This document shows positions 20,056-59,302 of a stretch of DNA of 64,000 nucleotides, in pieces. This DNA comes from an uncultured Candidatus Saccharibacteria bacterium. Its GTDB lineage: Bacteria; Patescibacteriota; Minisyncoccia; Phycocordibacterales; PALSA-1337. The DNA is taken from contig CAYIYK010000003.1 of NCBI GenBank assembly GCA_964367745.1, forward strand, positions 10,248 through 74,247. The letters are read 5' to 3'. Below the pieces are notes generated by a model. That model was not told the DNA's origin. It searched no databases and saw only the letters and a list, made by a program, of their open reading frames with translations. Made by a program: the position numbers and the translations under genes. Positions within the stretch are counted from its first letter, which is position 1. Each line of letters starts with the position of its first letter.

Positions 20056-20724
20056 ATGAAAATCCTGATTATTGAAGACGATGTAGATATTTCCAGTTTC
20101 ATAAAGGACAATCTTACAGAGAGTACATATTCAGTTGAAGTCGCAAAGGATGGACCTGATGGATCATTTCTGGCCAGAACAAATTATCACGATGTTATCA
20201 TAATGGATTATTCACTTCCTTCAAAAGACGGAGTTTTGGTTTGTGAAGAGATAAGATCATCAGGTGTTGAAACACCCATAATATTCCTAACCGTACATAC
20301 AGACGTCAAAAAGAAGGTTAAAGCATTAGAAAAAGGTGCGGATGACTATATGACTAAACCTTTCTCTATCGAAGAGTTAAAAGCGAGGATACAAGCTCTA
20401 GTGCGTAGACCTAGGAAAATCGAAAGTCCTGTACTGATAGTTGGAGACCTAGTTTTGGATACACACAAAAGAACAGTTAGAAGAGGTGAAACACCTATTT
20501 ATCTAACTAGAAAGACTTATGATCTATTGGAATATCTTATGAGGAATAAAGGTATAGTGCTTTCAAGGGGATCTATAATGGAATATGTATGGAACTCAGA
20601 TAGTGATCCATTCTCAAATACCATAGAAGCACATATCCTAAACCTCAGAAAGAAAATCAATGTTAGAGGTAAAAAGGATATACTAAAGAATATTCCAGGT
20701 AGAGGTTATATTATGGGGTCCTAA
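20056..20724 (+). CDS. OmpR/PhoB-family response regulator (receiver plus winged helix); no kinase nearby
   Basis: MKILIIEDD, IIMDYSLPSKDG, YMTKPF and a C-terminal wHTH (LTRKTYDLLEYLMRN ... GRGYIM). Confidence 0.9.
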   Translation: MKILIIEDDVDISSFIKDNLTESTYSVEVAKDGPDGSFLARTNYHDVIIMDYSLPSKDGVLVCEEIRSSGVETPIIFLTVHTDVKKKVKALEKGADDYMTKPFSIEELKARIQALVRRPRKIESPVLIVGDLVLDTHKRTVRRGETPIYLTRKTYDLLEYLMRNKGIVLSRGSIMEYVWNSDSDPFSNTIEAHILNLRKKINVRGKKDILKNIPGRGYIMGS

Positions 20725-22957
20725 ACTTACCTTCTTCTATTTGCTTTATAGCCTCATCTACTTGAGACTTTATAAGTGGGAATCTTTCTTTTGCTTTCTT
20801 TAGAAGTTCAATCGCTTGGTATTCTTGTTTACTCAATAGATAAACATAAGCTAGAGATGAATATACTTCTTGATTGTCTTGATCTTTAGCTAATATCTTC
20901 TTATATATTTCAATAGCTTTATCGTACTGTTTTGACAATACATAAGCATTTATAACTCTTGGATCGCTGAATACTTCGAAATCATCTCCAAATAGCTTCT
21001 TCGCTTTTACTTCTTCACCTGCCGTTATAAGAGCTGTAACGTAAGTAGTCTTGGCGATTGGATTGTCTGTTGCTGATTGATACGCTTTGTCTAATATCTC
21101 AACTGCTTCTTTATTTTTACCGATATTTAGATAGTTGACGGCTAGTTCAAATATTATACTTTGCTTGTTTGGAGAAAGTTCATTTGCTTTTTCAAGTAGT
21201 GGTGTAGCTGTATTAAAATCTCTTATAGTATCATAATAACTTCCACCAATAATATATATTCTTGCATCATTCGGAGTTTTCTTTATTTGATTTTCTATTT
21301 CTTTCTTTGCCAAATCGTAGAATGCAGCCTTTTTATCTTGTTGCATTTGTGGATTTTGTATTACATTTGCTGAACAATTTAATAGTTGCTCAACCGACTC
21401 TTGATTTGCAACTGTCTGTCTTAGTTTGAATATTTTTTCAAATGGTACTACTGATACTGTTTGAGGATTTGAACAAGCTATAAGTGCATTTATAAGTCCT
21501 GTATTCGCTTGTATAGCGCGCACATTCACAAAATACATTGAAGTAATGAATAAGATAACAACAACAGGTACATATACATAATCTCTTACTGTTTCAGCAT
21601 CTTCAGATATTGATTTGCTGTAATTTTTAAATATAAATAAATCTTTATTCTTTCTTAATGAATGAACAAAAGCGAGCAATGTAAAGAACATTACATAACT
21701 TGTTTGATTGTCGAATACGAATACATTGTGTATTGCATATCCTACCAATAGACCGATAAGTATAGATTTTTCACCAATAGTTTTTTCACTTTTAATGATA
21801 AAGATTAGAGAGATTAAATATAGAGCTAGATACGCAACTAATCCTAGTATTCCTCCGGCAACAAACCAATCTAGGAAAACACTGTGTGCTCGATCAAACC
21901 ATTGCTCATGTCTCCACATTTCAGGATTGTAATGTGAATTGAATATATAGTTAAAGTTCTCTTGCCCAACTCCGATAATTGCTGTCTTTGGGCTCTCTGT
22001 AATTCCCTTTATAGCCATAGGCCAAATAAATCTTCTTGCTTGAGTCTTTGTATCTGAAATAGATATAGAAGCCAATCTTCCCAATACTTCATTCTTTTGA
22101 ATCCAACTAGCATTTCTATTGAAATAAAATAGTGTACCGATAACAACTACTAGTAGAATAACTGAACCAGAAACTACTCTACTTATATTTGATTGACCAC
22201 TACTCTTTCTACCAAAAATTGTATAAATAGCACATGAAGCAATAATAGCAATCGTCCAACCTATGATAGTTCCTCGAGTTGCTGTTTGAAACATTATAAA
22301 AGAGAAAAATGCTGCGGCAATAGCATATGAATAGAACAAATGCTTCTTTGCAAAATAACTTATAGCCAAATATCCCGCAATAAATGCATTAAATAACATA
22401 TAAACCGCCATGTATGCAGAGTTACCTAGAGATGCATCGACTCTACTTCCTTGATGTGTTTCTGCCCAACCGAAAAACTGTGTTAGACCGTAAAGTGCAG
22501 TTATAAATCCAGAAACAATTACAACATTGAAAAACTTATGCCAACTCTCTTTTGTCTTAAGTACTGAAGATAGAACCATGAAATAACCCCAAAGGTGTAT
22601 TATCATCAACCAACCTTCCATTCTTTCGAAGTTTGACCAAATACTTCTAAGTGGATTTAGACCAGCTAAGTCAGCAATCAGAGCAATAAGAGTAAATATA
22701 CCTATAGAAATAGATATTGCATTGCATCGCGGAAGAACACTTCTATCTGTTCCGACAACACTAGTGCCTCTTTCTCTGAAAACAAGAATCAGCCATAGAG
22801 CAAAGACAATTTCAACAATTATTCTAAAAGCGAATCCTTTACCAGTGATGAATGGAAAGAATAAAGAATTAACGACGTAAGTTGGGATAAATGGGATTAC
22901 TGCTAAACCGATAATAATTGCGTATTTGATTAAAGTATTTATTGTTGCATTGTTCAT
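20711..22957 (-). CDS. O-antigen-ligase-like (Wzy_C) polytopic membrane protein with a C-terminal TPR domain
   Basis: 748 aa. About 12 TM helices include the Wzy_C-like block MFQTATRGTIIGW. The C-terminal ~270 aa carry TPR-like repeats (AFYDLAKK, ANELSPNK, AYQSATDN, IEIYKKILAKDQDN). Confidence 0.8.
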   Translation of the reverse strand: MNNATINTLIKYAIIIGLAVIPFIPTYVVNSLFFPFITGKGFAFRIIVEIVFALWLILVFRERGTSVVGTDRSVLPRCNAISISIGIFTLIALIADLAGLNPLRSIWSNFERMEGWLMIIHLWGYFMVLSSVLKTKESWHKFFNVVIVSGFITALYGLTQFFGWAETHQGSRVDASLGNSAYMAVYMLFNAFIAGYLAISYFAKKHLFYSYAIAAAFFSFIMFQTATRGTIIGWTIAIIASCAIYTIFGRKSSGQSNISRVVSGSVILLVVVIGTLFYFNRNASWIQKNEVLGRLASISISDTKTQARRFIWPMAIKGITESPKTAIIGVGQENFNYIFNSHYNPEMWRHEQWFDRAHSVFLDWFVAGGILGLVAYLALYLISLIFIIKSEKTIGEKSILIGLLVGYAIHNVFVFDNQTSYVMFFTLLAFVHSLRKNKDLFIFKNYSKSISEDAETVRDYVYVPVVVILFITSMYFVNVRAIQANTGLINALIACSNPQTVSVVPFEKIFKLRQTVANQESVEQLLNCSANVIQNPQMQQDKKAAFYDLAKKEIENQIKKTPNDARIYIIGGSYYDTIRDFNTATPLLEKANELSPNKQSIIFELAVNYLNIGKNKEAVEILDKAYQSATDNPIAKTTYVTALITAGEEVKAKKLFGDDFEVFSDPRVINAYVLSKQYDKAIEIYKKILAKDQDNQEVYSSLAYVYLLSKQEYQAIELLKKAKERFPLIKSQVDEAIKQIEEGKFRTP

Positions 22958-22992
22958 AATATGGAGATGATATCATATTATGAACATGTTAT

Positions 22993-23940
22993 CTATTGAA
23001 ATTTCTTTAATTTATTGGCTATAAATATATCAGTATCTCTTCTAGATTCATAAGTCATACCTCCTGTATGTGGAGCGATGATTACATTTGAATATTCTTT
23101 TGCAAACTTCACTAATGGATGATTCTTGCAACTATTTTTTGTAAATAGAATCTCACCATCTAGAACGTCAGCTGTATAACCGGCAATCTTTTTTTGCTTT
23201 ATCATAGTCATCAAATCACCTTCATGAACTATTTTGCCTCTTGAAGTATTTATAAGATACGCAGTTTTCTTCATAAGACTCATAGTCTTTTTATTGAAAA
23301 GGAATTCTGTTTCTGGATTCAAATGTACGTGTATAGAAATAAAATCACTTTGTTTTATAAGCTCTTCGAAACTAACTTTTTTCCAATTTAGATTTGATGA
23401 TTCAACTTTTGGATCAGTGAATAGAACTTTCATACCCAAAGCCTCTCCATATCTTGCCATCCATTTTCCAAGTCTACCAAGTCCAACAACTCCCAATGTC
23501 TGACCATTCAGTGAATGCCCTTTGAACTTTTCTCTATTCCATTCCCCCTTTAGAACTGATTGAGTTGAACTAGGAATATGTCTTGAAGAAGATATGAGTA
23601 ATCCCAAAGCTAGTTCAGCAGTGCCAGTAATAGTATTTAGGAAATCATCTTCACCCTTTAGACTTAGAACTTTTATACCCTTTTCCTCAGCGTATTTTAA
23701 ATCGATATGATCCAAACCAGTTGTTGCGGTAACAAGGAACTTTAGATTTTTAGCTTTTGATAGGACTTCACTATTAAAGTTCAATCCCAAACCACAAACT
23801 ACTACATCATATTTTTCTATCTTTTTTAATAGTTCTTGATTTGTAGGTATAACATAATCAACCTTACCTAGAATGTTTAGAATCTTTTTTGCTTCAGGGT
23901 CGAAATCTTTACCGATTGTATTTAGTATTTTGTAGGCCAT
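22993..23940 (-). CDS. D-isomer-specific 2-hydroxyacid dehydrogenase family protein
   Basis: The NAD-binding motif is GVVGLGRLGKWMARYGEALGMKV. INTSRG and IIAPHTGG (catalytic His region) are also present. Confidence 0.85.
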   Translation of the reverse strand: MAYKILNTIGKDFDPEAKKILNILGKVDYVIPTNQELLKKIEKYDVVVCGLGLNFNSEVLSKAKNLKFLVTATTGLDHIDLKYAEEKGIKVLSLKGEDDFLNTITGTAELALGLLISSSRHIPSSTQSVLKGEWNREKFKGHSLNGQTLGVVGLGRLGKWMARYGEALGMKVLFTDPKVESSNLNWKKVSFEELIKQSDFISIHVHLNPETEFLFNKKTMSLMKKTAYLINTSRGKIVHEGDLMTMIKQKKIAGYTADVLDGEILFTKNSCKNHPLVKFAKEYSNVIIAPHTGGMTYESRRDTDIFIANKLKKFQ

Positions 23941-23978
23941 TAAGTAATTATCTATAAAATGAAGGAAAAAGCAAATGG

Positions 23979-24422
23979 TTAAACCTTCGGCACCTTTATT
24001 ATAACCAACCTAGCTTTCGTAGAAGTCTTATGTTGATGTGGCTCTCCAGCAGGAATCCATAACCAATCTCCAGGTTTCATCACAACTTCTGTTCCACCCT
24101 TTATTTCTTTTGCTTTCCATTCCCTATCATCTATACTCCCATCAGCATTCTTTTTTACCCAAGGGTCTACCATTTCTCCTCCATAGATAAAGATAACTTC
24201 TCCTTCAAGACAAAACCATAGATCAGCTTCATGCTTGTGTATCTCTGCTTCATTTGAAATATTTATATCCTCCAATATATTCATAGGAACTTTATTCAAA
24301 GCAGAAAAAGCTTTTAGAGGTTCCAAAAGTTTTTTTGTTGGCGTGTCGGCACTAGGACTTGATAGAGTACTATCGATTAAATCTTTACTGATAAAAGCAC
24401 AATTTGATTTATTATTTTCCAT
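23979..24422 (-). CDS. Cupin-domain protein
   Basis: The two cupin motifs are HKHEADLWFCLEGEV and GDWLWIPAGEPHQH. Confidence 0.7.
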   Translation of the reverse strand: MENNKSNCAFISKDLIDSTLSSPSADTPTKKLLEPLKAFSALNKVPMNILEDINISNEAEIHKHEADLWFCLEGEVIFIYGGEMVDPWVKKNADGSIDDREWKAKEIKGGTEVVMKPGDWLWIPAGEPHQHKTSTKARLVIIKVPKV

Positions 24423-24431
24423 TTAATTTAA

Positions 24432-26312
24432 TTAAAATTTAAATCCTTTTTTCTTTAATTCTTTTAACATGTACTCTGTGATAATCCAATCAAGTGGATA
24501 GTCTATATCTATAGATCTCTCTTTTGGTACTATATACCCTGCAATCTTATCTCCATATAACCTCTCTTCTTTCATAATCAAATCTCTTCTCATACAATAT
24601 ATTGCTGCACTTCTCTTGTATGCTACAGGTAGATCTTGTCTTCTTGTACCTTCTACTTCAGGAACAGAATATGCACTGATGAAGTCACCTTCTAATTTTT
24701 TAATCTTAATTGGATTTACATTACTTGGTACTTCAACTATTGATACTGCACTATCTGCTTTTGTATCTATAAGTTTTTGAATTGTTCCATCGATATCGTC
24801 TATAGTTCTAAAAGGTGAAGTTGGCTGAAGAATAACTACATAGTCGATAGTGATATTATTTTTCTTTTCATAAAAATCTATTGCATGTTGCATTACAGGA
24901 AGATGTGGAGTTGAATCTAGAGCCAATTCTTTTGGTCTCATAAAAGGTACATCTGCACCATACTTCTTACACACATCGGCAATCTCTTTGTCATCTGTTG
25001 AAACGATAAGATGATTTATCAATTTACTTTTCTTTGCAGCATCGATTGTATATGCAATAAGAGGTTTATTGCCAAGTTTCTTTATATTCTTACCCGGAAT
25101 ACCTTTTGACCCTCCGCGAGCTGTAATAACGCCAAGGACGTTTGGAGTTCTGTATTCCCTATCTACATGTTCTTCTGTAAGCGGTTCAAATTTCTTTATA
25201 TCTTTTATTATTTTTTTATCCAAAATATCATGGAAAAGATTCGAGAAAATTCCATTTAGATGAAGTCTTGGTCTCATAGCGTAAACCATATCACTCGTGA
25301 TTATTGTTCCAGCTTTAATATCTCTTGAAGCAACGAGTGTTTTGTTGAAATAAGGTCTAAACTTATTTTGTGCACCTTCCAATTCTTTTTCCTTTTGACC
25401 GTAGAAAATATTTGTATCTATTTTCTTATATTCATTTTTCTTAATACCAGAGACCAATTGTTTCATTTCTTCTGGAGTTACTGAAGCTTTATGGTCTGAA
25501 CCCCAAAGGCCTCGGTCTAGAGAAAAGTGTTTCTCTATAACCTGCGCACCCATTTTTACTGCAGCTAAAGGAATAGTATTATCTCCAACTGAATGATCAG
25601 AAAAACCGATGATCGCTTGAGGGTATTTTTCTCTAAAATATTCTATAGTAGAAAGGTTAAAAGCTTCTGGAGGACATGGATATTCACTAACGCAATATAG
25701 AATAATAATTGGTGACCCACGCTTTGTTATATAGTCAACAACGTCATCCAACTCTTTGTGACTAACCATTCCTGTTGAAATGATTATTGGTTTTTGTGTC
25801 TTTGTAATAAAGTCCAAAAGAACATGATCCTGAACATCACCAGAACCTACTTTCCAGAAAGGTACATCTAGATTCTCAAGCTTAACCGCTGCCATTCTAG
25901 ACATCGGAGTTGAGAAGAATATAATTCCCTTTTTTTCTGAATATCTTTTTATCTCTTTGAAGAATTCTATAGGTGCTTCTTCAGTATTTCTTTTAACCCA
26001 AGAATATCTATCACTGCCTTTGAAGTGCGGAGAAACTACATTTATATTTGCTTGTTCATCTTCAACTTCATGAGTTTGAAATTTCACAGCATGTGCACCA
26101 GCTTTTACTGCTTCGTCGATAAGCTTTTTTGCATTTTTAATATAGACTTTTAGAGGTTGAGACTCTTGTGTTTGTATAAAATTCTTACCGATTTCAGCAA
26201 TAACAAAAACTTTATCTTTTGATATGATCTTAGAGATAGCGTGAGGTTTCACTATTTTTGAATTTTTGTTCTTACTGGCTTTAGAAGATTTAACAGACTT
26301 TTTTGTTTTCAT
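24432..26312 (-). CDS. Fused NeuB-like nonulosonic (sialic) acid synthase plus NeuA-like CMP-acid cytidylyltransferase
   Basis: NeuB blocks: VIAEIGKNF, AVKFQTH, PIIISTGM, VSEYPCPPEAFNL, GFSDHS and VIEKHFSLDR. A SAF-like segment (RDIKAGTIITSDMV) follows. From about aa 393 the sequence VLGVITARGGSKGIPGKNIKKLGNKPLIAYTI is typical of acylneuraminate cytidylyltransferases. Confidence 0.85.
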   Translation of the reverse strand: MKTKKSVKSSKASKNKNSKIVKPHAISKIISKDKVFVIAEIGKNFIQTQESQPLKVYIKNAKKLIDEAVKAGAHAVKFQTHEVEDEQANINVVSPHFKGSDRYSWVKRNTEEAPIEFFKEIKRYSEKKGIIFFSTPMSRMAAVKLENLDVPFWKVGSGDVQDHVLLDFITKTQKPIIISTGMVSHKELDDVVDYITKRGSPIIILYCVSEYPCPPEAFNLSTIEYFREKYPQAIIGFSDHSVGDNTIPLAAVKMGAQVIEKHFSLDRGLWGSDHKASVTPEEMKQLVSGIKKNEYKKIDTNIFYGQKEKELEGAQNKFRPYFNKTLVASRDIKAGTIITSDMVYAMRPRLHLNGIFSNLFHDILDKKIIKDIKKFEPLTEEHVDREYRTPNVLGVITARGGSKGIPGKNIKKLGNKPLIAYTIDAAKKSKLINHLIVSTDDKEIADVCKKYGADVPFMRPKELALDSTPHLPVMQHAIDFYEKKNNITIDYVVILQPTSPFRTIDDIDGTIQKLIDTKADSAVSIVEVPSNVNPIKIKKLEGDFISAYSVPEVEGTRRQDLPVAYKRSAAIYCMRRDLIMKEERLYGDKIAGYIVPKERSIDIDYPLDWIITEYMLKELKKKGFKF

Positions 26313-26348
26313 ATGTTATATCCTATGCTATTTAAAAATTTTTGCAAC

Positions 26349-26379
26349 AAAAAAAATCCACCCAGTAAAACCAGGTGGA
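26349..26379 (-). terminator. Intrinsic terminator after the GC-rich methyltransferase
   Basis: On the minus strand the stem is TCCACC..GGTGGA (26374..26379 / 26357..26362), followed by T8 (the A-run 26349..26356 on the + strand). Confidence 0.6.
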
Positions 26380-26408
26380 AATTGTGTTGAGTGTTCAGTA
26401 CTCGAAGA

Positions 26409-27347
26409 TCAAAGCCTGCGAGCGGTGACCACAACCGACGGGTGGTATGCGGTAAAGTTGAGGAGATTCTGGTCTGCCTCAAAAACGCTACGGATTCCAA
26501 TACCAACAATCTTGAGCTTGTCCTCAATCGGAAGCTTGTCGAGCGGTTCCCAACGGCACCAAGTGGCCCAGGCATTGCGAATGAAATCGACGATTCGACT
26601 CCCAACAACAGGAACGAGGGTTTCATTCACACGGAAGATCTCGAAACCATTTTGCTCGAGAGCAGACTTGAGATCAACAAGCGAGAATGCCTTTGCTTTG
26701 GGTGCCCAGAGATTTTCGCGAGTGAAATCAGGATACTTTGACCGAACATAATTGTAAGCTGCATCGTGCGCAATCCTATAAAGCGGATGCGAGAGTTCGG
26801 TTGTGATCTGATCCGGCCCCGGCTCAGACTTTGACCGGAAATCGTGCAAATTGCACTTCCAATCCGAATAATTGGACGGACCGAAGTCAAAACTGAGAGT
26901 TCCACGAACCTTGAGGCAAGAACTGATTGCTTTCAAGGAAGCATCGAGGGTATCCCGCAAAAGATGAAACATCTGACAACAGACAGCGGCGTCATGAAGA
27001 CCTACAACATGCCGATCCAGAAATTCCGCTTTCATTGTGTAAGCATTCACCCTCGGATTACCCATCAAATTGAGGAGAAGGAAATGCATCATGCTTTCAT
27101 TCGGCTCAACAGCCGAAACGAGCGCCTTCGTCCTCTTGAGAATAACTGCTGTACTGACACCAGTGCCGGCGCCAATCTCCAACACTGAATTGATTCCATT
27201 TTTGTTGGCTTGAATCGCCTCACTAACAACGAATTCAGCCATTTCAGTGTAGTATTTGTCACGACCATTGAAGGCCGAGTATGCTGCGCCGACATTCCCT
27301 TCGAAGAGTTTCGAACCGAGGATTGCACTAACATTACTTGTACTCAT
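26409..27347 (-). CDS. Class I SAM-dependent methyltransferase of foreign composition
   Basis: 312 aa. SAM motif I is VLEIGAGTGVST. The gene is about 50% GC and uses GC-rich codons, unlike its neighbours. Confidence 0.8.
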   Translation of the reverse strand: MSTSNVSAILGSKLFEGNVGAAYSAFNGRDKYYTEMAEFVVSEAIQANKNGINSVLEIGAGTGVSTAVILKRTKALVSAVEPNESMMHFLLLNLMGNPRVNAYTMKAEFLDRHVVGLHDAAVCCQMFHLLRDTLDASLKAISSCLKVRGTLSFDFGPSNYSDWKCNLHDFRSKSEPGPDQITTELSHPLYRIAHDAAYNYVRSKYPDFTRENLWAPKAKAFSLVDLKSALEQNGFEIFRVNETLVPVVGSRIVDFIRNAWATWCRWEPLDKLPIEDKLKIVGIGIRSVFEADQNLLNFTAYHPSVVVTARRL

Positions 27348-27459
27348 TTTTTTAAGAACTGCATCATGACTTTATTATCATGATTTTCGTTTAATCTATA
27401 ACATATTATTGTAAATTTAGCAATAGTACGATATTTAAATATTAAACTATAGAAAATAA

Positions 27460-27488
27460 TTGACGTAATACTTTTTTAATGATATTGT
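27460..27488 (+). promoter_or_regulatory. Promoter for the island transporter gene
   Basis: TTGACG (27460..27465), a 17-nt spacer, then TATTGT (27483..27488). Confidence 0.4.
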
Positions 27489-27523
27489 ATATTAAATTTA
27501 AACAAACAGTTCATTAAAAAAAT

Positions 27524-28477
27524 ATGACAGCAAAAAATGTTGGAAATTGGCAAAAATGGGCCTTCTTGGAAGGAATAACAAGGACCTTATCAAGGACTCT
27601 ACAAAAAGTTGTTGGTTCCGTATCTAACAACTGGGAGAATACCCTACTAGCTGCCGGCATAATCGGTTTTGTTCAAGTTCTGTCAGCTGTAATCATTACA
27701 AGAAAGACGAAAGAAAAACTTCTGTGTGATCCAGCAGGAATCATCGGCTGTTTGATTTTTGGTCTTATAGCTCTAGTATGTACTGTATTAGGCTTCGCAA
27801 CTTTCCTTTATGGAGGAGATATTACTGTTAGTACTTTTATCATTGCCCTGTCCATCATTCCAAGTATGATAATCGACATCGTCTTCTTCAACTACAAATC
27901 TAGTCGTAGAGAATGGATTGGGATTTTTGTGGCGGTTATAGCTGGTTGGGCAGTTCTAGACTTCCCAAACTTAGCTAGCATGCTTAAGTTGCCTATGTGG
28001 GTAGGCCTTTCATTCATCACCATGATCCTTGTGGCAATAAATCAAGGAATCACACAATCAATCAAAGATATTTCCCCGATGTTCAAAAACTTCTGGGGTG
28101 GTATGGTGGCACTAATACTGTCACCAGTTATCATGATCGTGATTGGCAAAGGTGGATTCTTACTCAGTTTCCCAGATAATAAAGTACTATGGTTTACCTC
28201 AGCTATGATTGGGATCATAGTGATAGCCATATGGTCTTTCAACCTTCTGAGCTACAAGGACGGTGCGAGTATCGCATTAAAAAAACTTGTAGTAAGTAGT
28301 ATTTACTTTATCAGTACCACGTTTCTTGGAAGCATCGTATTTAACGAAGCAATGACTGCTGGGAAAATTATTGCAATCCCTCTTTTTATTATTTCATACT
28401 TCCTTATGAGTAAGGAAGCCTACAATTTCGTACTAGCGAAGCGGATACCGAAGTGGATAAAGTGGATATTGAAGTGA
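27524..28477 (+). CDS. About 10-TM membrane protein, possibly a DMT/EamA-type transporter
   Basis: 317 aa with about 10 hydrophobic helices in two halves. GC is elevated (~45% by hand count). It uses a TGA stop, whereas the native + strand CDS stops I read (4207, 6628, 11114, 12881, 14791, 15987, 17364, 20724) are all TAA. Confidence 0.55.
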   Translation: MTAKNVGNWQKWAFLEGITRTLSRTLQKVVGSVSNNWENTLLAAGIIGFVQVLSAVIITRKTKEKLLCDPAGIIGCLIFGLIALVCTVLGFATFLYGGDITVSTFIIALSIIPSMIIDIVFFNYKSSRREWIGIFVAVIAGWAVLDFPNLASMLKLPMWVGLSFITMILVAINQGITQSIKDISPMFKNFWGGMVALILSPVIMIVIGKGGFLLSFPDNKVLWFTSAMIGIIVIAIWSFNLLSYKDGASIALKKLVVSSIYFISTTFLGSIVFNEAMTAGKIIAIPLFIISYFLMSKEAYNFVLAKRIPKWIKWILK

Positions 28478-28507
28478 TGTCTAAGTAAATACAGTAATCT
28501 CTCAAAG

Positions 28508-28537
28508 CCCTCACGTAAAAAGCGTGGGGGTCTTTTT
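28508..28537 (+). terminator. Intrinsic terminator after the island transporter
   Basis: An 8-bp stem CCCTCACG (28508..28515) / CGTGGGGG (28523..28530) with one G-U pair is followed by TCTTTTT. It overlaps the neuC stop codon. Confidence 0.65.
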
Positions 28538-29693
28538 ATTCAACAAAAGTCTTTTGAGTATAAAGAGGTACAGTAGCTATAACCTCTGCAATCTTTTTAC
28601 TTGTACCTTCTGCAAAATATAGACTTGATGATTCGTATCTGCCTTTTTTAACTTGTTTCTCTATTGCTTTCTTTATAGCTTTAATATCATGGTCTACAGT
28701 TACTACATTTTCTGCACTCAATCTTTTGAATTGTCTATTACCAATATTCACCACAGGCAAACCCATAAAAGAAGATTCCTTTATTCCAGCTGATGAATTC
28801 CCTATCAAACATAGACTGTTATTCAATAGCCAAATAAAATCCTTTGGACCCATATATCGCATGAAGCGTATTTTATGTCCTTTAACTTCATCTTTAAAAA
28901 TTCGAAGCTCATGTGATATATCTTCTGCACCGGCATCAGCATTTGGCCAAAACCAAAGTGTTGGAATCTTTAGACTATGTACAGCATCAAGGATTTTCTT
29001 TGTATTTTCATGTACATGCTTCACATCCATAATATCAGGATGATACATAACTATTAGATATCCTTTCTTTAGATCAAAAAGGGCCCCACTTCCTGTTTTC
29101 TTTATATCGAATTTATGTTTATTTTTTGCTAATTTTTGTACAACTTCTATTTCTGGACTACCAAAATTGAAAACGTGAGATTCTCTTTCTCCAAGTCTCA
29201 ATACTCTTTTTCTTGCTGGTTCATTTGTTGTAAAGTGAATATGAGAAAGTTTTGTGATAGCGTGTCTTACACTTTCATCTATTGATCCAGATACATCACC
29301 ACCTTCTATGTGTGCGATAGGTATAGATAAATATGCAGCTGCAATTGTAGCTGATAGAACTTCAAATCTATCACCTCTTACCACAACGACATCAGGTTTA
29401 ATCTGATTAAAAAGTGTAGTGAATTCTATTATTCCTAGTCCTGTTGTTTTTGCTTTTACGATTGTATCATTCCCTTCTAGATTGAAATGTAGTTCGTATA
29501 GCTTGTTATATCCGTCTTCCGTCAAAAGTTTTCTTATATCAGCAAGTTTTGAAGTATAACGAGACAATAAAGCTGTACCTCCAACTATTATATGTAGGTC
29601 AATATCCTTTCTTTTCTTTAGTTCTTCTAGAATAAGAAAGTTACGACTATAGTGTATGAAACTTGTAATAACAAAGCAGACTTTTCTCTTCAT
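28536..29693 (-). CDS. neuC: Hydrolysing UDP-N-acetylglucosamine 2-epimerase (NeuC-type)
   Basis: 385 aa. PDVVVVRGDRFE and IAHIEGGDVSGSIDESVRHAITKLSHIHF match the NeuC / hydrolysing-epimerase pattern. Confidence 0.8.
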   Translation of the reverse strand: MKRKVCFVITSFIHYSRNFLILEELKKRKDIDLHIIVGGTALLSRYTSKLADIRKLLTEDGYNKLYELHFNLEGNDTIVKAKTTGLGIIEFTTLFNQIKPDVVVVRGDRFEVLSATIAAAYLSIPIAHIEGGDVSGSIDESVRHAITKLSHIHFTTNEPARKRVLRLGERESHVFNFGSPEIEVVQKLAKNKHKFDIKKTGSGALFDLKKGYLIVMYHPDIMDVKHVHENTKKILDAVHSLKIPTLWFWPNADAGAEDISHELRIFKDEVKGHKIRFMRYMGPKDFIWLLNNSLCLIGNSSAGIKESSFMGLPVVNIGNRQFKRLSAENVVTVDHDIKAIKKAIEKQVKKGRYESSSLYFAEGTSKKIAEVIATVPLYTQKTFVE

Positions 29694-29696
29694 AGT

Positions 29697-30680
29697 CTAG
29701 CTAATATGCAGTATTTTTCGTAAAAATGCAAATCTATTTGAATACTTTATTATGTATATTATTTTAACCAAGATTGGTGATAGTGATACGCGCGCTTTAA
29801 GATAAATATTCTTCGGAATTTCTATATCTTTTGATAATGTATCCTTCCTTGCAACCAAACGTATATGGTGGGTATTCAATCCATCTTGTTTTTGCTTCTT
29901 TATTTGTTCTTGCTTTTTACCTTCATCAACATCCATATAGACGATTACGAAACCTGCTTTTTTACACATTAAAGAAAGTGTCTCTGGTGTAAACATATAG
30001 ACATGGTCAATCTGCACTCCAGACTGAAGCTTCCCCATTCTTCTAACTTGATGTCTCCAGTTTTTCACTGCAAGGAAAATATGACCACCTGGTTCCAGTG
30101 CTTCATGTGACCAATTTAGGAATTTCATTGGATCTAAAAGATGGTTCAAACTTTGAACACAAAGAATATTTTTTACTTTATTCTTAATATCCATATTCAC
30201 ATCTTCAAAAAGCCCGCGAATAGTCTTTACGCCTTTTGATTCTGCATAACCCGATTCTTCAAGCGAAGGTTCAATACCTAGCAGTTCTAGATTTTTCCTA
30301 GATTCCCTCATACCAAAAAGGATTCCACCAGTACTTGAACCAACGTCGATAGTAAGTCCGTCTTTTACATATTTACCCATATAACTGACTATAGCCTTAC
30401 CGAATCTTCTAGCATTCTCGAAGTTCTTCTCTAGATCAGAATTGTATTCACGATTCTTTATACTAGCTCTATCTTGTCTATAAAAAGACATATAGTATTC
30501 ATCATAATCTTTTGCAGTCATACGTGGGTTAATAAAGACTAGACTGCACTTCTTACACATTACTGTATTTGCTTTGAGATTGTTTACACTTCTTTTAACA
30601 ATTATTTTAAAATCATTTCCACCACAAAGATTACATGCGATGTATTCTAAATTCTTTTTATTATAATCAAATCCTTCCAT
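29697..30680 (-). CDS. Zn-ribbon class I SAM methyltransferase (paralog M1)
   Basis: CNLCGGNDF...CKKCSLVFINPRMT forms a 4-Cys ribbon. The SAM motif is TIDVGSSTGG. QIDHVYMFTPETL is shared with M2. Confidence 0.8.
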   Translation of the reverse strand: MEGFDYNKKNLEYIACNLCGGNDFKIIVKRSVNNLKANTVMCKKCSLVFINPRMTAKDYDEYYMSFYRQDRASIKNREYNSDLEKNFENARRFGKAIVSYMGKYVKDGLTIDVGSSTGGILFGMRESRKNLELLGIEPSLEESGYAESKGVKTIRGLFEDVNMDIKNKVKNILCVQSLNHLLDPMKFLNWSHEALEPGGHIFLAVKNWRHQVRRMGKLQSGVQIDHVYMFTPETLSLMCKKAGFVIVYMDVDEGKKQEQIKKQKQDGLNTHHIRLVARKDTLSKDIEIPKNIYLKARVSLSPILVKIIYIIKYSNRFAFLRKILHIS

Positions 30681-30681
30681 T

Positions 30682-32040
30682 TTATTTAATTAAATTAATT
30701 ATATAATCTGCAATTCTCTTTCCTGATAAACCGTCTGTATAACTTGTCTGTTCTTTTACCAAGATCTCTCTTTCTTTACTCTTTACTGATGGATCATCAA
30801 GATATTTATTTATTGAATCCAATAACTCTTGTTTGCTATTAACTAGATCGATAGCACCGGTCTTTAATGCATTCTTATAATGCCAAGTTCTATAGTATTG
30901 TACAGGAGATTTCAATAATTTTGGAATTATATTTATTTCAAAATTTATATTTATTACAGGTTTATTAAAAATACTTGCATCGATACTAATACTTGAAGCA
31001 TAGCAAACCAAAACAGACATATGATAAAGAGTATCCTGCAAATGTTCTAGATCTGCTTTATTCATATCCCAATCTACACCTCTTTTTGTACCAAAACGTA
31101 TACCAGGCTTATCATATTTTAGATCTGGTCTCTTTGATATTTCTTCTTCATCAACAAAGTCATTTGGTTGGAATCGGACCAATAATTCACATTCGTATTT
31201 CAATTCATTTGAGTGAATAGTTTTTTGCAAAAGGTCGATTATATCCCAATCTGCAGAACTGAACGCTCTCCCCATTGGAGCGTATACTATCAATTTCTTA
31301 TCACTTGATATTTTTATTTTATTAAAAAATTCTTCTCTTAAAATAGGTTTCCTTGTGTAGAAGAAATCGTATTGTGGCAGACCGCTGATAAAAATATCTT
31401 CCGATTTCATTTCATTCAAATCAATCATCTCCTTTTTTACGATATCGTTAAAAACTATAGCTTTATCAGGTAATAATCTTAAAATGCATCTTGATGTAAC
31501 TTTGTCCCAAGAGTTTATATAGCCTATCGTTTTTATTTTTCTTTTTTTTGCTTCTCTTAAAAGATTGATTTCTATTTCTTCAAATAGATGTGCGGTGAAA
31601 ACAAGATCTGGTGAATATTTATCAAAATATTCACTATATGTATTGTCTTTTATTAAAATAAAATCCAAATATCGTACGATTCTTCTTATCACAGGCCAAG
31701 CCAAAATATAGTTCGATACTTTACCAAAATAGTATCCGAAAAATCTTCCTTCATATTCACTTACCATTTTCCTTTTTAAATCTGTTGTTTCAGTTCTAAG
31801 TAAAGTGAATTTCATCTTTGAGAAAAACCCATCAAACATTGGTACAGATTTTTGCTCGACAAATTCAAATACTATTCTTGGATCATTGAATTCATTTTTA
31901 TAATAATCAACTTTTTGTTGTGATTTTGTAAATAGAACAATTTTAATATCTTTATTTAAAAGAAGATTTTCCAAAATCGGTGTTCGTAGAATATTTTTTA
32001 CTTCTACACCCTCAAAGATTGTTACAAATATTGTCTTCAT
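30682..32040 (-). CDS. Uncharacterised GT-B-like transferase (paralog P1)
   Basis: 452 aa. It shares blocks with P2 and P3: IKTIGYINSWDKVTS, LLVRFQPND and FNKPVININF. The overall layout is that of a two-Rossmann-domain GT-B. I did not recognise the family. Confidence 0.6.
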   Translation of the reverse strand: MKTIFVTIFEGVEVKNILRTPILENLLLNKDIKIVLFTKSQQKVDYYKNEFNDPRIVFEFVEQKSVPMFDGFFSKMKFTLLRTETTDLKRKMVSEYEGRFFGYYFGKVSNYILAWPVIRRIVRYLDFILIKDNTYSEYFDKYSPDLVFTAHLFEEIEINLLREAKKRKIKTIGYINSWDKVTSRCILRLLPDKAIVFNDIVKKEMIDLNEMKSEDIFISGLPQYDFFYTRKPILREEFFNKIKISSDKKLIVYAPMGRAFSSADWDIIDLLQKTIHSNELKYECELLVRFQPNDFVDEEEISKRPDLKYDKPGIRFGTKRGVDWDMNKADLEHLQDTLYHMSVLVCYASSISIDASIFNKPVININFEINIIPKLLKSPVQYYRTWHYKNALKTGAIDLVNSKQELLDSINKYLDDPSVKSKEREILVKEQTSYTDGLSGKRIADYIINLIK

Positions 32041-33365
32041 TTATTTATTGATTCTAGTATTGCATTAAAAAGTCTTTCAGTATTTTTGCCATCCAAAAAT
32101 CCAGTTTCCATCTCTGCTAGTTTCTTTCTTTTATCTTTATCCAGACTAGGATTTTTAACGTATTCTTCTACATAGTCTTTAAATTGACGCATAGATTCAG
32201 CCAGCTTCACACCTCCACTCTCTATTACTGGAATAAAATTGTTATAATCATAATATCTTCTTATACTATCAAAATATTCCCTTTTTTCATGTCCGTCAAA
32301 ACCAAAAAGGATTATTGGTTTATCCATATATGCAGAATCCAAAACTAAAGTTGATGGTGAGCTGATAACCAATTCTGACCAGAACAATGTATGAGCAAGA
32401 TGTATATCATCATCTTTATCGATCTCTGTAATTTTTATATTATCAAATTTAGGTTTTGCTCTGTCATACATAACCTTAATATTTGGAAACTTCGGACTAT
32501 TCTCCAATTCTCTAACATAATCTCCAGGTGGAAGTCTGACTAGAAGTTGATAATCATTTGGTAAAGTCTTATCCAAAATATCTACAATATCTCTGTCTAC
32601 AGTATTTTTTCTCAAATATCGATCACCTAGAGGTATAAATAAAGCCAGCTTTTTATTCTGATCACCACCTATTTTTTCTATAAATTCTTTTCTATTTGTA
32701 AATACATTCTTTTTATAATCATCATAGTGTGGAATTCCGACAATAGATATTATTGATTCATTTATTCCTTGAAGATCTTTTGCTTCATCTTTAATGATAT
32801 TGTTCCAAACAAAAAGTCTATTCGGAATCGTTCGAATGATACCTTTTGAAGTAAGATTGTCCCAAGAACGAACCATACCGATAGTCTTTATACCTGAGGA
32901 ATTACCTTCATTTAAAATCGCTATATCGATTTCGCTTTGAATATCGGTAGCGAATACGCAATCAGGTTTATACTGCTCAAATAATTTATCAAATTTTTTA
33001 TTTTTATAACTTACTCTTTCCAAGAATCTTACGAATTTATGCCCGATTTTATTTGATAATAAATAAGTTAAATACATTCCACTCCCTTTCATCTCTGTCT
33101 TCCTTTTTATATAAAGAGTTTTTGTATTTAATGCTGTTAGCGAAAGATACTTTAATAAATTTTCTCTTTTAGCATTTTTAAATTCTATTCCTTCAACAAC
33201 TACCCCATCTCTTTCAAAACTTTCTTTAAAAAAACTCTCTTTATTTTTTGGAGCAATTATTACAACTTTTATTTCATTCTTAACAAAGAGATCCAAAATT
33301 CCAGATGAAAGAATATTTCTTGATATTAGAGGATGGCAACTAGTTATAAAAATTGTCTTTTTCAT
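32037..33365 (-). CDS. Uncharacterised GT-B-like transferase (paralog P2)
   Basis: 442 aa with IKTIGMVRSWDNLTS, LLVRLPPGD and MDKPIILFGF. It overlaps P1 by 4 nt. Confidence 0.6.
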   Translation of the reverse strand: MKKTIFITSCHPLISRNILSSGILDLFVKNEIKVVIIAPKNKESFFKESFERDGVVVEGIEFKNAKRENLLKYLSLTALNTKTLYIKRKTEMKGSGMYLTYLLSNKIGHKFVRFLERVSYKNKKFDKLFEQYKPDCVFATDIQSEIDIAILNEGNSSGIKTIGMVRSWDNLTSKGIIRTIPNRLFVWNNIIKDEAKDLQGINESIISIVGIPHYDDYKKNVFTNRKEFIEKIGGDQNKKLALFIPLGDRYLRKNTVDRDIVDILDKTLPNDYQLLVRLPPGDYVRELENSPKFPNIKVMYDRAKPKFDNIKITEIDKDDDIHLAHTLFWSELVISSPSTLVLDSAYMDKPIILFGFDGHEKREYFDSIRRYYDYNNFIPVIESGGVKLAESMRQFKDYVEEYVKNPSLDKDKRKKLAEMETGFLDGKNTERLFNAILESINK

Positions 33366-34312
33366 TATCTTTTAAGGAATTGCTGTAGACGTACTGTAAG
33401 TAAATATCTTAAATAAATATAATATTTGTTTATTGATAATAAAGTAAAAATATAATTACCCTTACCTATTGTTAAATCCTTGAAGGGGGTTTTATTCAAT
33501 CTTTTAGCCACAATGCGAATATGTACTTTTGGAATTCCCTGCATGACCTTCTTTTTTGTATATTCATTAGCTTCAAAGAAAAGGATTTCGAATCCAGCTG
33601 ATACAATGAAATCTCTCAAAACCTCAGGTGTATACATATAGACATGGTCGATCTTTACACTATTTTCATACTTTCCTGCTTTTTGTAATTGCTGTCGAAA
33701 ATTCATAACTTCAACTACAAGAAGTCCATTATCAAAAAGAGACTCGTGAGCCCATTTGAAAAAATATCTAGGATCCAAATAGTGATTTAAAGCTTGAGTA
33801 CTGACTATAACTGCGAATTTTTCTTTTTTATTATGATCTTCGATTAGAGCATGATAAGTCTTTATTCCTTGAGAATTCGCATAATCTGATTCAATCTTTG
33901 ATGGCTCAAGACCAATTACTTCTCTATTCAAAAATCTTTTCATTCCTTCCAAAACTCCTCCGACACCAGAACCGACTTCCATTATTGAGCCTTTTACTTT
34001 TAGATATGGTGATATAAGCTCACCCAAGAATTTGCCGTGTCCGATGGTTGATTCGAACAATTTCTTACAATCAAAATCTGAACCTGCTTCGCCATTGTTT
34101 ATAGTTTTTTGTCTGTATTCTTCTTCATAATAGAATTTGTAACCAGACTTTGTCATTCTAGGATTTATATAAATAAGCCCGCATTTTTTACAAATAACAG
34201 AATTCAAAGCAAGACCATCAGTGCCTTTTTTTGACAGGATTTTATAATTGTTACTTAAACAGAAACTGCAAGCAATATTCTCCTTTTCAATTGTATTGTA
34301 TGGGAAAGACAT
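33365..34312 (-). CDS. Zn-ribbon class I SAM methyltransferase (paralog M2)
   Basis: I moved the start to ATG 34312 (MSFPYNTIEKENIACSFC), which aligns with the M1 N-terminus. CSFCLSNNY...CKKCGLIYINPRMT, MEVGSGVGG and KIDHVYMYTPEVL are present. Confidence 0.8.
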   Translation of the reverse strand: MSFPYNTIEKENIACSFCLSNNYKILSKKGTDGLALNSVICKKCGLIYINPRMTKSGYKFYYEEEYRQKTINNGEAGSDFDCKKLFESTIGHGKFLGELISPYLKVKGSIMEVGSGVGGVLEGMKRFLNREVIGLEPSKIESDYANSQGIKTYHALIEDHNKKEKFAVIVSTQALNHYLDPRYFFKWAHESLFDNGLLVVEVMNFRQQLQKAGKYENSVKIDHVYMYTPEVLRDFIVSAGFEILFFEANEYTKKKVMQGIPKVHIRIVAKRLNKTPFKDLTIGKGNYIFTLLSINKYYIYLRYLLTVRLQQFLKR

Positions 34313-34383
34313 TTTATGATAAACAAGTATATCACAACAAAATATTGCTTCAATTAAGATTAAATTCTGATATACTGTCTCAA

Positions 34384-36471: not shown

Positions 36472-36478
36472 AAATAAA

Positions 36479-37828: not shown

Positions 37829-37873
37829 AGAAAGGTATTGTAGCATATATGTTATAATCCTTATTATTACCAC

Positions 37874-40366: not shown

Positions 40367-40425
40367 AACTCAATATACTATCATAAATTGTGATAACCAT
40401 ATATAATCTTAAAAAATACAATTTT

Positions 40426-41814: not shown

Positions 41815-41817
41815 TTT

Positions 41818-44240: not shown

Positions 44241-44603
44241 ATAGATAAAGTAACTACTGATAGCAAGTAAACCTGAAGCTAGTATTTGACTTAGGAAATA
44301 GTGAATATGGAAGTGATCTACAAATAAATACATTAAAAGTGTATTCACACCAAGATTTACGCTTGAGACAATAAAATAAATAGTTGTTTGTTTGTGAACA
44401 TCTTCGATACTTTTATCCTGAAATGTCCAGAACTTTTGCAATATAAAACTAACAGAGAATGCTATTAGGAAAGCAAGAATTGCTGAAATCAAATAATTTA
44501 TCTTAAAAATATCAACAAAAATAGCTAGGAAGGCCAAGTTAACAACCGCTGCAGTTCCACCAGATATTATATATTTTATTGTCTTAATTATTTTGGTTCT
44601 CAT
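44172..44603 (-). CDS. gtrA: GtrA-family membrane protein
   Basis: 143 aa with 4 TM helices. YIISGGTAAVVNLAFLAIF ... SFILQKFWTF is the GtrA pattern. Confidence 0.8.
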   Translation of the reverse strand: MRTKIIKTIKYIISGGTAAVVNLAFLAIFVDIFKINYLISAILAFLIAFSVSFILQKFWTFQDKSIEDVHKQTTIYFIVSSVNLGVNTLLMYLFVDHFHIHYFLSQILASGLLAISSYFIYSRFIFKNNAVVSTFDNQNKDNS

Positions 44604-45879: not shown

Positions 45880-45883
45880 ATAT

Positions 45884-47709: not shown

Positions 47710-47754
47710 ATTTTAATATTGTCACCTTAATAATATTGCTATACTATATCAAAC

Positions 47755-49675: not shown

Positions 49676-49676
49676 T

Positions 49677-57975: not shown

Positions 57976-58015
57976 AACGAAATAATTAACTTAATAAATA
58001 AAACTAATAATTCAA

Positions 58016-59294: not shown

Positions 59295-59302
59295 ATAAAA
59301 TA

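Follow-up and report, generated by a model that had tools for sequence, protein, structure and literature searches.

The neuB–neuC locus and its two-gene island

Two genes, MT* and DMT, make up the gene content of a 2.2-kb island in the window analysed here, a 64-kb stretch of DNA (W) that was compared with related contigs and loci carrying L-numbers (L001 etc.). The island lies between two conserved flanks. The neuB–neuA fusion (24432..26312, minus strand) combines NulO synthase, SAF and CMP-NulO synthetase (Pfam NeuB 223 bits, CTP_transf_3 98 bits) and scores below the NCBIfam equivalog cut-offs for both NeuB and PseI, and neuC (28536..29693, minus strand) encodes a hydrolysing UDP-GlcNAc 2-epimerase (NCBIfam NeuC_NnaA 342.7 bits, cut-off 235.9). 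With a NeuC-type epimerase, a NeuB-type synthase and a CMP-NulO synthetase, the window contains a NulO (sialic-acid-like) cluster. Three further minus-strand genes follow the same operon direction, namely the conserved partners encoding a Wzy_C/TPR ligase-like protein (20711..22957) and a D-2-hydroxyacid dehydrogenase (22993..23940), and a variable cupin gene (23979..24422). These partners (20711..24422) also accompany DMTa, the carrier gene DMT of the island, in L016, L017, L026, L027 and L028. Elsewhere the same super-cluster encodes a Wzx-type flippase (38978..40366) and a GtrA protein, and at least seven SAM methyltransferases are found in the gene cluster of W.

MT* (26409..27347, minus strand) is a variable accessory gene whose predicted 312-aa product is a class I SAM-dependent methyltransferase, with a Rossmann-type domain, a GxGxG motif, an acidic motif II and matches above cut-off to the Methyltransf_12/25 Pfam families. 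It belongs to a small uncharacterised family of about 25 clusters at 50% identity (exhaustive HMMER scan, 1.84 billion representatives), of which profile scans recover only five loci in metagenomes and only five in genomes, and the C-terminal half of the family is conserved and distinctive. DMT (27524..28477, plus strand) encodes a 317-aa EamA-type carrier of the drug/metabolite transporter superfamily. EamA (PF00892) is matched in two stretches (30.3 bits, cut-off 28.2) and by 49 of the 51 members of the DMT family, and the AlphaFold model (pLDDT 93.8) shows 10 TM helices arranged as two inverted 5-TM repeats. The methyltransferase and ~10-TM transporter of the preliminary description are therefore correctly named, including the placement of the carrier in the DMT superfamily. 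The dN/dS ratios are 0.24 for MT* and 0.16 for DMT, with most flanks at 0.02-0.08; judged by these ratios, by confident structure models of both products and by the intact SAM motifs of MT*, both genes are functional.

The two genes diverge from an AT-rich spacer of 176 bp (27348..27523), in which the promoter-like TTGACG-17-TATTGT proposed earlier is located at 27460-27488 on the plus strand. By count the pattern is weak evidence (9 matches found, 6.1 expected); its hexamers are kept in L001 (TTGACG-17-TATTAT) and are not alignable in L005 or L011. The intrinsic terminators described at both outer ends are recovered by pattern scan as terminator-like hairpins. One lies 3′ of MT*, before the neuBA start at 26312 (26357..26379, minus strand; 10-bp stem, 5 GC pairs, T8 tail), and the other lies 3′ of DMT and abuts the neuC stop codon at 28536 (28507..28531, plus strand; 10-bp stem, 6 GC pairs).

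Gene neighbourhood and cassette exchange in relatives

DMTa lies inside a NulO cluster in 10/10 contexts (W, L001, L005, L011, L023, L026, L016, L017, L027 and L028). The typical cluster around it consists of neuC/neuB/neuA and a 2-hydroxyacid dehydrogenase, with or without a cupin, and an operon of the order neuC-neuA-2HADH-cupin-DMTa-DMTb-neuB recurs in L016, L027 and L028. Gene order thus establishes the predicted DMT/EamA carrier as a standing component of Patescibacterial NulO clusters, in keeping with the earlier hint that the carrier is linked to a sialic-acid-like pathway. Our literature search returned nothing relevant on EamA/DMT proteins in NulO clusters or on NulO in Patescibacteria. 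In the preliminary description the island interrupts neuC and neuBA genes that would otherwise be contiguous. This is not supported: all seven syntenic contigs carry at least a DMT gene between the two, and a relative with contiguous neuC-neuBA was not found; DMT is the constant occupant of the gap, in alleles that are extremely divergent. Independent assemblies of other samples (L001-L007) show this gene order too, which makes a chimeric assembly unlikely.

The pair of DMT and MT* occurs between neuC and neuB(A) in L001 (MT* 75% identical), L005 (59%) and L008/L011 (56%). More broadly, an EamA gene adjoins MT* in 10/10 lineages with readable neighbours (W, L001, L005, L011, L012, L013, L014, L015, L022 and L025), and MT* is within a NulO cluster in nine of these ten. 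The exception is L013/L020, where NulO genes are lacking for ~7 kb around an MT*-DMTb pair; association with a NulO cluster is thus not obligatory for the pair. Such a pair is what would be expected of a self-contained methylate-and-export module for detoxification or resistance, analogous to tehA/tehB and merely lodged in a recombination-prone locus, and the top structural match of MT* is TmtA, a thiol methyltransferase involved in self-protection. We regard this explanation as highly doubtful, given that nine of the ten MT* lineages carry MT* inside NulO clusters and that DMTa lacking MT* still sits within NulO operons.

A comparison of W with L023 reveals how the segment varies. Protein identity is 94% for neuC, 98% for neuB and 98% for MT23b, but 56% for DMT, for which dS between the two is not computable. 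L023 is without MT* and the cupin. Nucleotide identity falls from 0.91-0.96 to 0.56-0.70 at ~26300 and ~28540, the edges of the island. Between W and L001 the neuB-neuA fusion shares 98% amino acid identity and neuC 93-94% (a range that includes L023). By these sequence comparisons, the segment between the start of neuB(A) and the stop of neuC has been exchanged across the lineage as a cassette in which deeply divergent DMT alleles are accompanied by MT* in some contigs and not in others. The carrier allele changes together with the set of modifying enzymes (MT*, cupin). Because an integrase, a tRNA and flanking repeats are all absent, we infer that the exchange proceeds by homologous recombination in the conserved flanks, as in O-antigen and capsule serotype genes.

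O-antigen and capsule loci carry serotype-specific central genes (wzx, wzy, modifying enzymes), recombine in their flanks and are typically GC-poor. The present locus resembles them in having a conserved backbone around a short segment with deeply divergent alleles, modifying enzymes that are present or absent, an atypical base composition and probable recombination in conserved flanks. It differs in having a DMT/EamA carrier, rather than a MOP flippase or Wzy polymerase, as its variable membrane protein, and in that the deviation is toward higher GC and recurs in lineages of very different backgrounds.

Base composition and age of the segment

The overall GC of the window is 0.331. Over the 64 kb, GC in 940-bp windows peaks at 0.486 (start 26391; best elsewhere, 0.421) and in 300-bp windows at 0.513 (26411). 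MT*, the strongest outlier, has a GC of 0.483 and a GC3 of 0.508 (z = 8.9), and DMT a GC of 0.394 and a GC3 of 0.406 (z = 5.6), compared with a GC3 of 0.232 ± 0.031 (maximum 0.286) for the remaining 53 ORFs. Codon-usage distance is also largest for MT* (0.345 vs 0.129 ± 0.033 for other ORFs), which prefers G/C-ending codons for nearly every amino acid and has a pyrimidine excess at third positions (T3 0.36, A3 0.13), and the four windows most deviant in tetranucleotide composition lie at 26001-27750. The GC jump reported for this stretch is thus borne out by sliding-window GC, GC3, codon-usage and tetranucleotide profiles alike. Away from the island, the ORF at 5834..6628 is an additional GC3 outlier (0.42).

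Several alternative causes of the deviation were rejected. A membrane-protein codon effect is inconsistent with the GC3 of 0.24-0.27 in the Wzx, Wzy, PMT_2 and GtrA genes of W, and high-expression codon bias with the ordinary GC3 of the GroEL, enolase and pilin genes. Overlapping ORFs (80-160 aa), as noted in the preliminary description, do occur. The alternative-frame open stretches are no longer than those in synonymous-codon shuffles (W, L001, L005, L011), which rejects dual coding or an antisense gene and makes the overlapping ORFs a by-product of composition, as had been proposed. A structured RNA was likewise rejected, as W contains no Rfam matches; mRNA folding z-scores are -1.16 for MT* and -1.96 for DMT, vs -0.70 for the neuC control.

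The preliminary description read the deviation as the mark of a recent foreign island, acquired between neuC and neuBA from a donor of moderate GC, possibly the host of an episymbiont, and its function might then be unrelated to the locus. The GC3 z-scores, the top-ranking codon-usage and tetranucleotide deviation, the sharp edges with a terminator at each, and the replacement of the same segment in L023 are all consistent with such an arrival, and the third-position composition of MT*, together with 27 S>W vs 10 W>S synonymous changes polarised with outgroups, is compatible with decay from a GC-richer state. Parsimony polarisation is composition-biased, however, producing the opposite artefact in the AT-rich flanks, and the excess in MT* is not significant once composition is allowed for. 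The orthologues in L001, L005 and L011 match in position and composition despite saturated synonymous divergence. In L001, L005 and L008/L011, respectively, GC3 is 0.54, 0.61 and 0.56 for MT* and 0.40, 0.52 and 0.39 for DMT, with neighbours at 0.16-0.31, while fourfold-site identity is near chance for W-L005 and W-L011 in flanks and cassette alike. Orthologues of the same composition and position throughout the lineage were what the preliminary description itself had named in advance as evidence against its proposal. Between W and L001, the dS of MT* (0.69) and DMT (0.40) falls within the range of the flanks (0.21-1.22).

The search for a donor leads in the same direction. All relatives recovered are metagenomic or Patescibacteria sequences. 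Neither a search of 5.8 billion proteins nor the HMMER scan of 1.84 billion representatives yielded a homologue from a named organism outside the Patescibacteria, which argues against the host as donor. The named homologues belong to Sungbacteria, Harrisonbacteria, 'Patescibacteria group' and Saccharibacteria, an assignment based on the labels of a few MAG records. Hallmarks of a mobile element are also missing: there is no integrase or att-like repeat, W has no tRNA, and its repeats are short (14-23 nt) and at chance level. A mobile element was rejected. Recent acquisition of foreign DNA is not supported, and synteny largely refutes the recent-island reading, which we now hold to be very improbable. 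What stands of the earlier proposal of horizontal acquisition is that the segment is exchanged within the lineage (W vs L023); that it is recent or host-derived is not supported. Occurrence at the same site in L001 and in the deeper relatives L005 and L011 indicates that the pair was inherited vertically in W.

The GC excess itself extends well beyond W. The GC3 of MT* and DMT lies above that of their neighbours in nearly all lineages, over backgrounds from 0.2 to 0.7, and persists in GC-rich backgrounds (0.92 vs 0.50-0.56 in L015; 0.93 vs 0.62-0.79 in L013). It is therefore a property of the MT*/DMT families in nearly all lineages and not a mark of recent arrival. The locus has another GC-rich variable gene in the GTBacc family (GC 0.53-0.60 in L005, L026 and L014). 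Cassette exchange does not explain why the deviation in GC3 is always upward.

One explanation is repeated downhill transfer from a very GC-rich cassette reservoir, with the lineages at different stages of amelioration and no maintaining force. It accommodates the constant direction of the deviation, the uneven size of the MT* excess (greatest in L015, the AT-rich clade and L013, slight in L014 and L025, nil in L012), a possible AT-ward drift of MT* after the W-L001 split and the cassette replacement documented between W and L023. It is less easily reconciled with the GC3-extreme copies in L013 and L015 (0.92-0.93), which are mutually only 50% identical and are outliers in their own genomes, which would imply an old and diverse reservoir that sampling has missed. 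In the AT-rich clade, moreover, MT* and the flanks give congruent trees and have reached a similar degree of saturation at fourfold sites, and a rough relaxation estimate from an ancestor with GC4 = 1.0 predicts ~0.44, vs 0.49-0.61 observed. We therefore view this explanation as possible but unlikely. We give about the same limited credence to a joint proposal in which a dedicated DMT carrier for a NulO metabolite (free, CMP-activated or a precursor) operates in NulO operons and GC3 is held high by a non-neutral force. Candidates for such a force, in place of recent transfer, are selection on synonymous positions and biased gene conversion in a recombination hot spot.

Proposed function of the carrier and methyltransferase

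We consider it reasonably probable that the island is a variable decoration-and-transport module of a NulO surface-glycan locus in Patescibacteria, the organism probably being Saccharibacteria-related. Gene neighbourhood and fold suggest that the carrier would transport a small NulO-pathway molecule through the cytoplasmic membrane. Our first guess is that it takes up or salvages either a precursor or a group used for decoration, in the way that LicB handles choline for teichoic acid; our second is that it translocates free, CMP-activated or lipid-linked NulO. MT* may methylate the carried compound or the NulO, thereby giving a strain-specific glycan variant.

The nucleotide-sugar transporter families Nuc_sug_transp (PF04142), TPT (PF03151) and UAA (PF08449) are unmatched by all 51 family members at E <= 1, so the kinship with Nuc_sug_transp suggested in the preliminary description does not hold as sequence membership. 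A PDB sequence search at E <= 10 likewise gave no match for DMT, its 51-sequence profile or a DMTb paralogue. The eukaryotic CMP-sialic acid transporter SLC35A1 (PDB 6OH4, 6I1R) is not the best structural match of the DMT model, and the literature search found no precedent for a nucleotide-sugar-type carrier acting at the bacterial cytoplasmic membrane.

In the modelled structure the best fold match is LicB, with conserved aromatics in the same helices, although no LicB alignment was obtained. LicB is a choline importer that serves phosphocholine decoration of teichoic acids and LPS (PDB 7B0K; PMC8890701), and its aromatic box comprises W17/Y109/W167/Y233/Y236/N252/Y255 (PMC8890701). DMT differs from it in several respects: identity is 12%, with sequence similarity undetectable; further charged positions (E16, D118, K253 and E275) are invariant in the DMT family; and the partners LicA, LicC and LicD are absent around DMT. 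No LicA (choline kinase), LicC or LicD-like gene occurs among the ORFs of at least 120 aa listed for the glycan region (20.7-54 kb), which weakens a strict LicB analogy. A full LicB-type scheme, in which the carrier imports a small cationic head-group (a choline- or ethanolamine-like amine), MT* is its N-methyltransferase, the teichoic-acid-like polymer of TagF-like enzymes is decorated and the NulO link reflects co-regulation only, appears rather unlikely.

ArnE/ArnF, the undecaprenyl-phosphate-aminoarabinose flippase, provides another comparison, being composed of EamA-domain proteins that form small 4-TM subunits. As with DMT, these membrane proteins are encoded in a surface-glycan modification operon. 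In contrast to the 4-TM subunits, DMT is a fused 10-TM carrier, and W already has a GtrA/GT2/PMT_2 triad and Wzx for lipid-linked flipping. With a Wzx-type flippase and GtrA in the super-cluster, there is no need for DMT to act as sole flippase.

DMT-family SAM transporters exist in Rickettsia and Chlamydia, and a SAM/SAH exchanger that supplies the methyltransferases of the cluster in an organism of reduced metabolism would account for the constant adjacency of MT* and an EamA carrier as well as for the number of SAM methyltransferases in the cluster of W. Two genomes with flanks 94-98% identical would hardly be expected to differ so far in a housekeeping cofactor carrier (56% identity), though, and NCBIfam has no model matching DMT. 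Our literature search found nothing on metK or SAM in Saccharibacteria, and the exchanger seems scarcely credible.

The proposed role of MT* in the decoration-and-transport module has a counterpart in the accessory methyltransferases that modify NulO in flagellin and LPS glycosylation islands such as those of Campylobacter and Legionella. These are likewise accessory SAM methyltransferases in NulO clusters that vary between strains, a likeness of setting in which sequences were not compared. MT* differs from them as a separate small family that is obligatorily paired with a DMT carrier.

Glycosylation of Saccharibacteria and other episymbiotic Patescibacteria is essentially unexplored, according to a recent study of pili (PMC11623550). 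The surface of Patescibacteria is where contact is made with the host bacterium, with phages and, in animals, with the immune system, and the carrier and methyltransferase, being the part of the locus that varies between strains, could be of use as a serotype marker. For compositional 'islands' in these genomes, relatives need to be checked before a host-derived reading is adopted; here the wrong donor would follow. The GC3 excess, being independent of lineage, poses a small, clean puzzle to models of how composition ameliorates and codon usage evolves. The sialic-acid-like pathway at this locus appears to have a built-in membrane carrier, which is not described for bacterial NulO clusters. 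If the proposed function is true, the carrier would be the prokaryotic equivalent, in function, of the eukaryotic Golgi CMP-sialic acid transporter, or would represent a new class of NulO salvage transporter.

Composition and setting of the island

The segment between neuC and neuBA carries MT*, a class I SAM methyltransferase gene (26409..27347, minus strand, 312 aa), and DMT, a 10-TM EamA-type carrier gene (27524..28477, plus strand, 317 aa), and is, as the preliminary description had claimed, a GC-rich island. Overall GC of the window is 33.1%; the richest 940-bp stretch of the 64 kb starts at 26391 and reaches 48.6% (runner-up elsewhere, 42.1%), and the richest 300-bp stretch starts at 26411 with 51.3%. 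GC and GC at third codon positions (GC3) are 0.483 and 0.508 for MT* (z = 8.9) and 0.394 and 0.406 for DMT (z = 5.6), with the remaining 53 ORFs of the window as reference (GC3 0.232 ± 0.031, maximum 0.286). No other ORF of the window has a codon-usage distance as large as that of MT*, and the four segments most deviant in tetranucleotide composition all lie within the island region. G/C-ending codons are favoured for nearly all amino acids, without parallel in the window's other membrane proteins. The many overlapping ORFs described for the island are present but no longer than in synonymous shuffles, and are therefore a by-product of composition. A second GC outlier, a 264-aa ORF at 5834..6628 (plus strand; GC 0.405, GC3 0.42, z = 6.2), has the second-highest codon-usage distance and one hydrophobic central stretch; it has no Pfam match, and its best NCBIfam match is sub-threshold (18.6 bits, cut-off 900).

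The signals described earlier are all found: terminator-like hairpins at 26357-26379 (minus strand) and 28507-28531 (plus strand), and a promoter-like TTGACG-17-TATTGT match at 27460-27488 whose hexamers are kept in the closest relative. On one side of the island lies a neuB-neuA fusion (24432..26312), on the other the gene for a NeuC-type hydrolysing epimerase (28536..29693; NCBIfam 342.7 bits vs 235.9). A single glycan super-cluster spans 20.7-54 kb (20711..53944), directly adjoining type IV pilus genes (57496..62507). Its locus genes include a cupin (23979..24422, minus strand; weak matches to the N-acetylneuraminate anomerase/YhcH family), a D-2-hydroxyacid dehydrogenase (2HADH), a Wzy_C/TPR ligase-like protein, TagF-like enzymes (two clear, with a third weak sub-threshold match) and several methyltransferases. 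At least seven SAM methyltransferases, including a TylF type, occur in the super-cluster, with a PhyH-like dioxygenase, Wzx (38978..40366), a PMT_2/GT2/GtrA three-component set (41818..44603), GT9, GT2, five GT4 and a GFO/IDH oxidoreductase. Two mechanically listed methyltransferase ORFs (33365..34432, minus strand; 34231..35520, plus strand) lie on opposite strands and share about 200 bp, and the true start of one probably lies further downstream. A DedA/VTT-PAP2 phosphatase fusion (18642..19925, minus strand), a candidate for undecaprenyl-phosphate recycling, sits beside the cluster, as in relatives L005 and L023. Between the cluster and the pilus genes lies a VirD4/TraG-like coupling-protein ATPase (53949..55823, minus strand), whose GC of 0.38 exceeds the window mean.

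Age and exchange of the gene pair

The order neuC-DMT (opposite strand)-MT*-neuB(A) is found again in relatives' contigs from independent samples, with MT* 75% identical in L001, 59% in L005-L007 and 56% in L008/L011 (MAG label Candidatus Saccharibacteria). In L001, L005 and L011, GC3 is 0.54, 0.61 and 0.56 for MT* and 0.40, 0.52 and 0.39 for DMT, respectively, against 0.16-0.31 for neighbours. Between the window and L001, dS of MT* (0.69) and DMT (0.40) lies inside the flank range (0.21-1.22), so the cassette has been co-inherited since their split. Against L005 or L011, fourfold-site identity is near chance in cassette and flanks alike, and within the AT-rich clade the MT* tree agrees with flank trees. 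The shared site and composition, near-chance fourfold identity and congruent trees thus indicate a pair that is old at this site. The proposed recent acquisition is contradicted by the recurrence of site and GC excess in L001, L005 and L011 despite that near-chance identity in the latter two, an outcome named beforehand as telling against it. Protein database searches returned no homologue from any named non-Patescibacterial organism, leaving the suggested host donor without support. As such, the compositional anomaly and gene features of the first reading stand while the recent host-derived insertion does not, and within a sialic-acid-like glycan locus the island forms a module of carrier and methyltransferase that is old and conserved yet exchangeable. 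neuB and neuA form one 626-aa fused protein in the window, L001 and L023, and are separate genes in L005 (9079-10933) and L026 (4949-6753).

As judged from sequence comparison, the island segment is NEVERTHELESS exchanged between relatives. L023/L024, the closest relatives by flanks (protein identity 94% for neuC, 98% for neuB, 98% for the flank gene MT23b), lack MT* and the cupin and carry a DMT of 56% identity (dN 0.33, dS not computable). Nucleotide identity to L023 is 0.91-0.96 up to ~26300, vanishes over MT*, is 0.56-0.70 over DMT and is back at ~0.9 at ~28550, a drop and return that mark the island edges exactly. L026 has DMT and no MT*, and DMT alleles are 43-58% identical among lineages with flanks 78-98% identical. 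Purifying selection acts on both genes, more weakly than on their neighbours (dN/dS 0.24 for MT*, 0.16 for DMT, 0.02-0.08 for neighbours). Absence of the cupin from L023 is a second presence/absence difference of the locus, despite flanking genes 94-98% identical.

Because no integrase, tRNA or att-like repeat was found, exchange likely proceeds by homologous recombination in the conserved flanks, a reading that fits the way dS differs from one side of the cassette to the other. Across 23979..33365, dS to L001 forms a mosaic: the cupin/neuBA side has values of 0.21-0.37, the neuC/MT23b/TagF-like side 0.83-1.22, suggesting a recombination breakpoint at the cassette or close to it. Within this stretch, the TagF-like gene 32037..33365 is itself evolving fast (75% amino acid identity, dN/dS 0.13). 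O-antigen and capsule loci show the same pattern in their serotype-specific genes, a divergent exchangeable segment in conserved flanks; the island belongs to a familiar class, the variable cassettes of surface-glycan loci, with uncharacterised members of known superfamilies as its parts. GTBacc, a third accessory family, shows similar behaviour and is likewise GC-rich. Its uncharacterised members, 31-41% identical, without Pfam match and absent from the window, lie between cupin and 2-hydroxyacid dehydrogenase in L005 (11430-12560, GC 0.525), L026 (3455-4450, 0.60) and L014 (8565-9605, 0.54), above neighbours in all three loci.

Third-position GC excess across lineages

The excess extends outside the AT-rich clade. 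MT* GC3 is 0.44 in L025 (neighbours 0.36-0.38), 0.61 in L014 (0.47-0.55), 0.92 in L015 (0.50-0.56) and 0.93 in L013 (0.62-0.79), with no excess in L012; for DMTa, the subfamily to which the window's carrier belongs, it is 0.36 in L023 (about 0.2), 0.60 in L026 (0.34-0.43), 0.54 in L016 (0.40-0.50), 0.57 in L017 (0.39-0.50) and 0.77 in L028 (0.50-0.67), with none in L027. The deviation is never downward, whereas random exchange between lineages of differing GC would give both signs. Alternatively, a GC-rich reservoir might feed cassettes into all lineages, but GC3-extreme MT* copies are just 50% identical mutually and are outliers within their own genomes. Moreover, by a rough estimate of relaxation from fourfold-site identity, an ancestor with a fourfold-site GC of 1.0 would have fallen to ~0.44 since the split from L005, compared with 0.49-0.61 observed. 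RNA structure, expression-related codon usage and membrane-protein codon usage were tested and found wanting, the last since the window's other membrane proteins lack the excess; overlapping genes were ruled out by the synonymous shuffles. Polarised substitutions, by a biased polarising method, hint at AT-ward drift in MT*. Candidate causes are selection at synonymous sites and a recombination hot spot subject to biased gene conversion.

The carrier in nonulosonic acid clusters

Among the conserved parts of Patescibacterial nonulosonic acid (NulO) clusters is the DMT carrier: DMTa lies inside such clusters in 10 of 10 contexts examined, including clusters without MT*, which bears out the suspected tie to a sialic-acid-like pathway. 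L016 (Harrisonbacteria), L027 and L028 share the operon neuC-neuA-2HADH-cupin-DMTa-DMTb-neuB, L017 reads neuB-neuA-2HADH-DMTa, and a Sungbacteria MAG has neuC-MT*-EamA-neuA-cupin-cupin-HAD-neuB. DMTa and DMTb, distinct EamA carriers (~17% identical), stand in tandem at L016 8001-9852, L027 8001-9856 and L028 8001-9876. MT*, an accessory gene, is tied to a carrier, an EamA carrier adjoining it in every lineage with readable MT* neighbours (the window, L001, L005, L011, L012, L013/L020, L014, L015, L022, L025), and which carrier allele occurs varies together with the set of modifying genes. In GC-moderate lineages the MT* partner is DMTb, not DMTa.

The carrier would transport a small molecule related to the pathway through the cytoplasmic membrane, and MT* may methylate the carried compound or the NulO, giving a strain-specific glycan. 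The putative role ranked first is to take up or salvage a precursor or a decorating group, by analogy with the choline importer LicB, which serves teichoic-acid decoration and is the best fold match, and from the TagF-like enzymes in the locus; LicA, LicC and LicD genes were not found in the region, which argues against strict analogy. Ranked second is translocation of free, CMP-activated or lipid-linked NulO, though Wzx and GtrA, already in the super-cluster, weaken a flippase role. Two further roles rank below both: exchange of SAM and SAH, and detoxification as an independent pair with MT*. Conserved cavity residues are E16, D118, K253, E275 and many Trp/Tyr; no alignment of these to the LicB aromatic box or the CMP-sialic acid transporter site was obtained. 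The island is of interest on two counts: bacterial NulO operons have a DMT carrier as an integral part, and the GC3 excess is independent of lineage.
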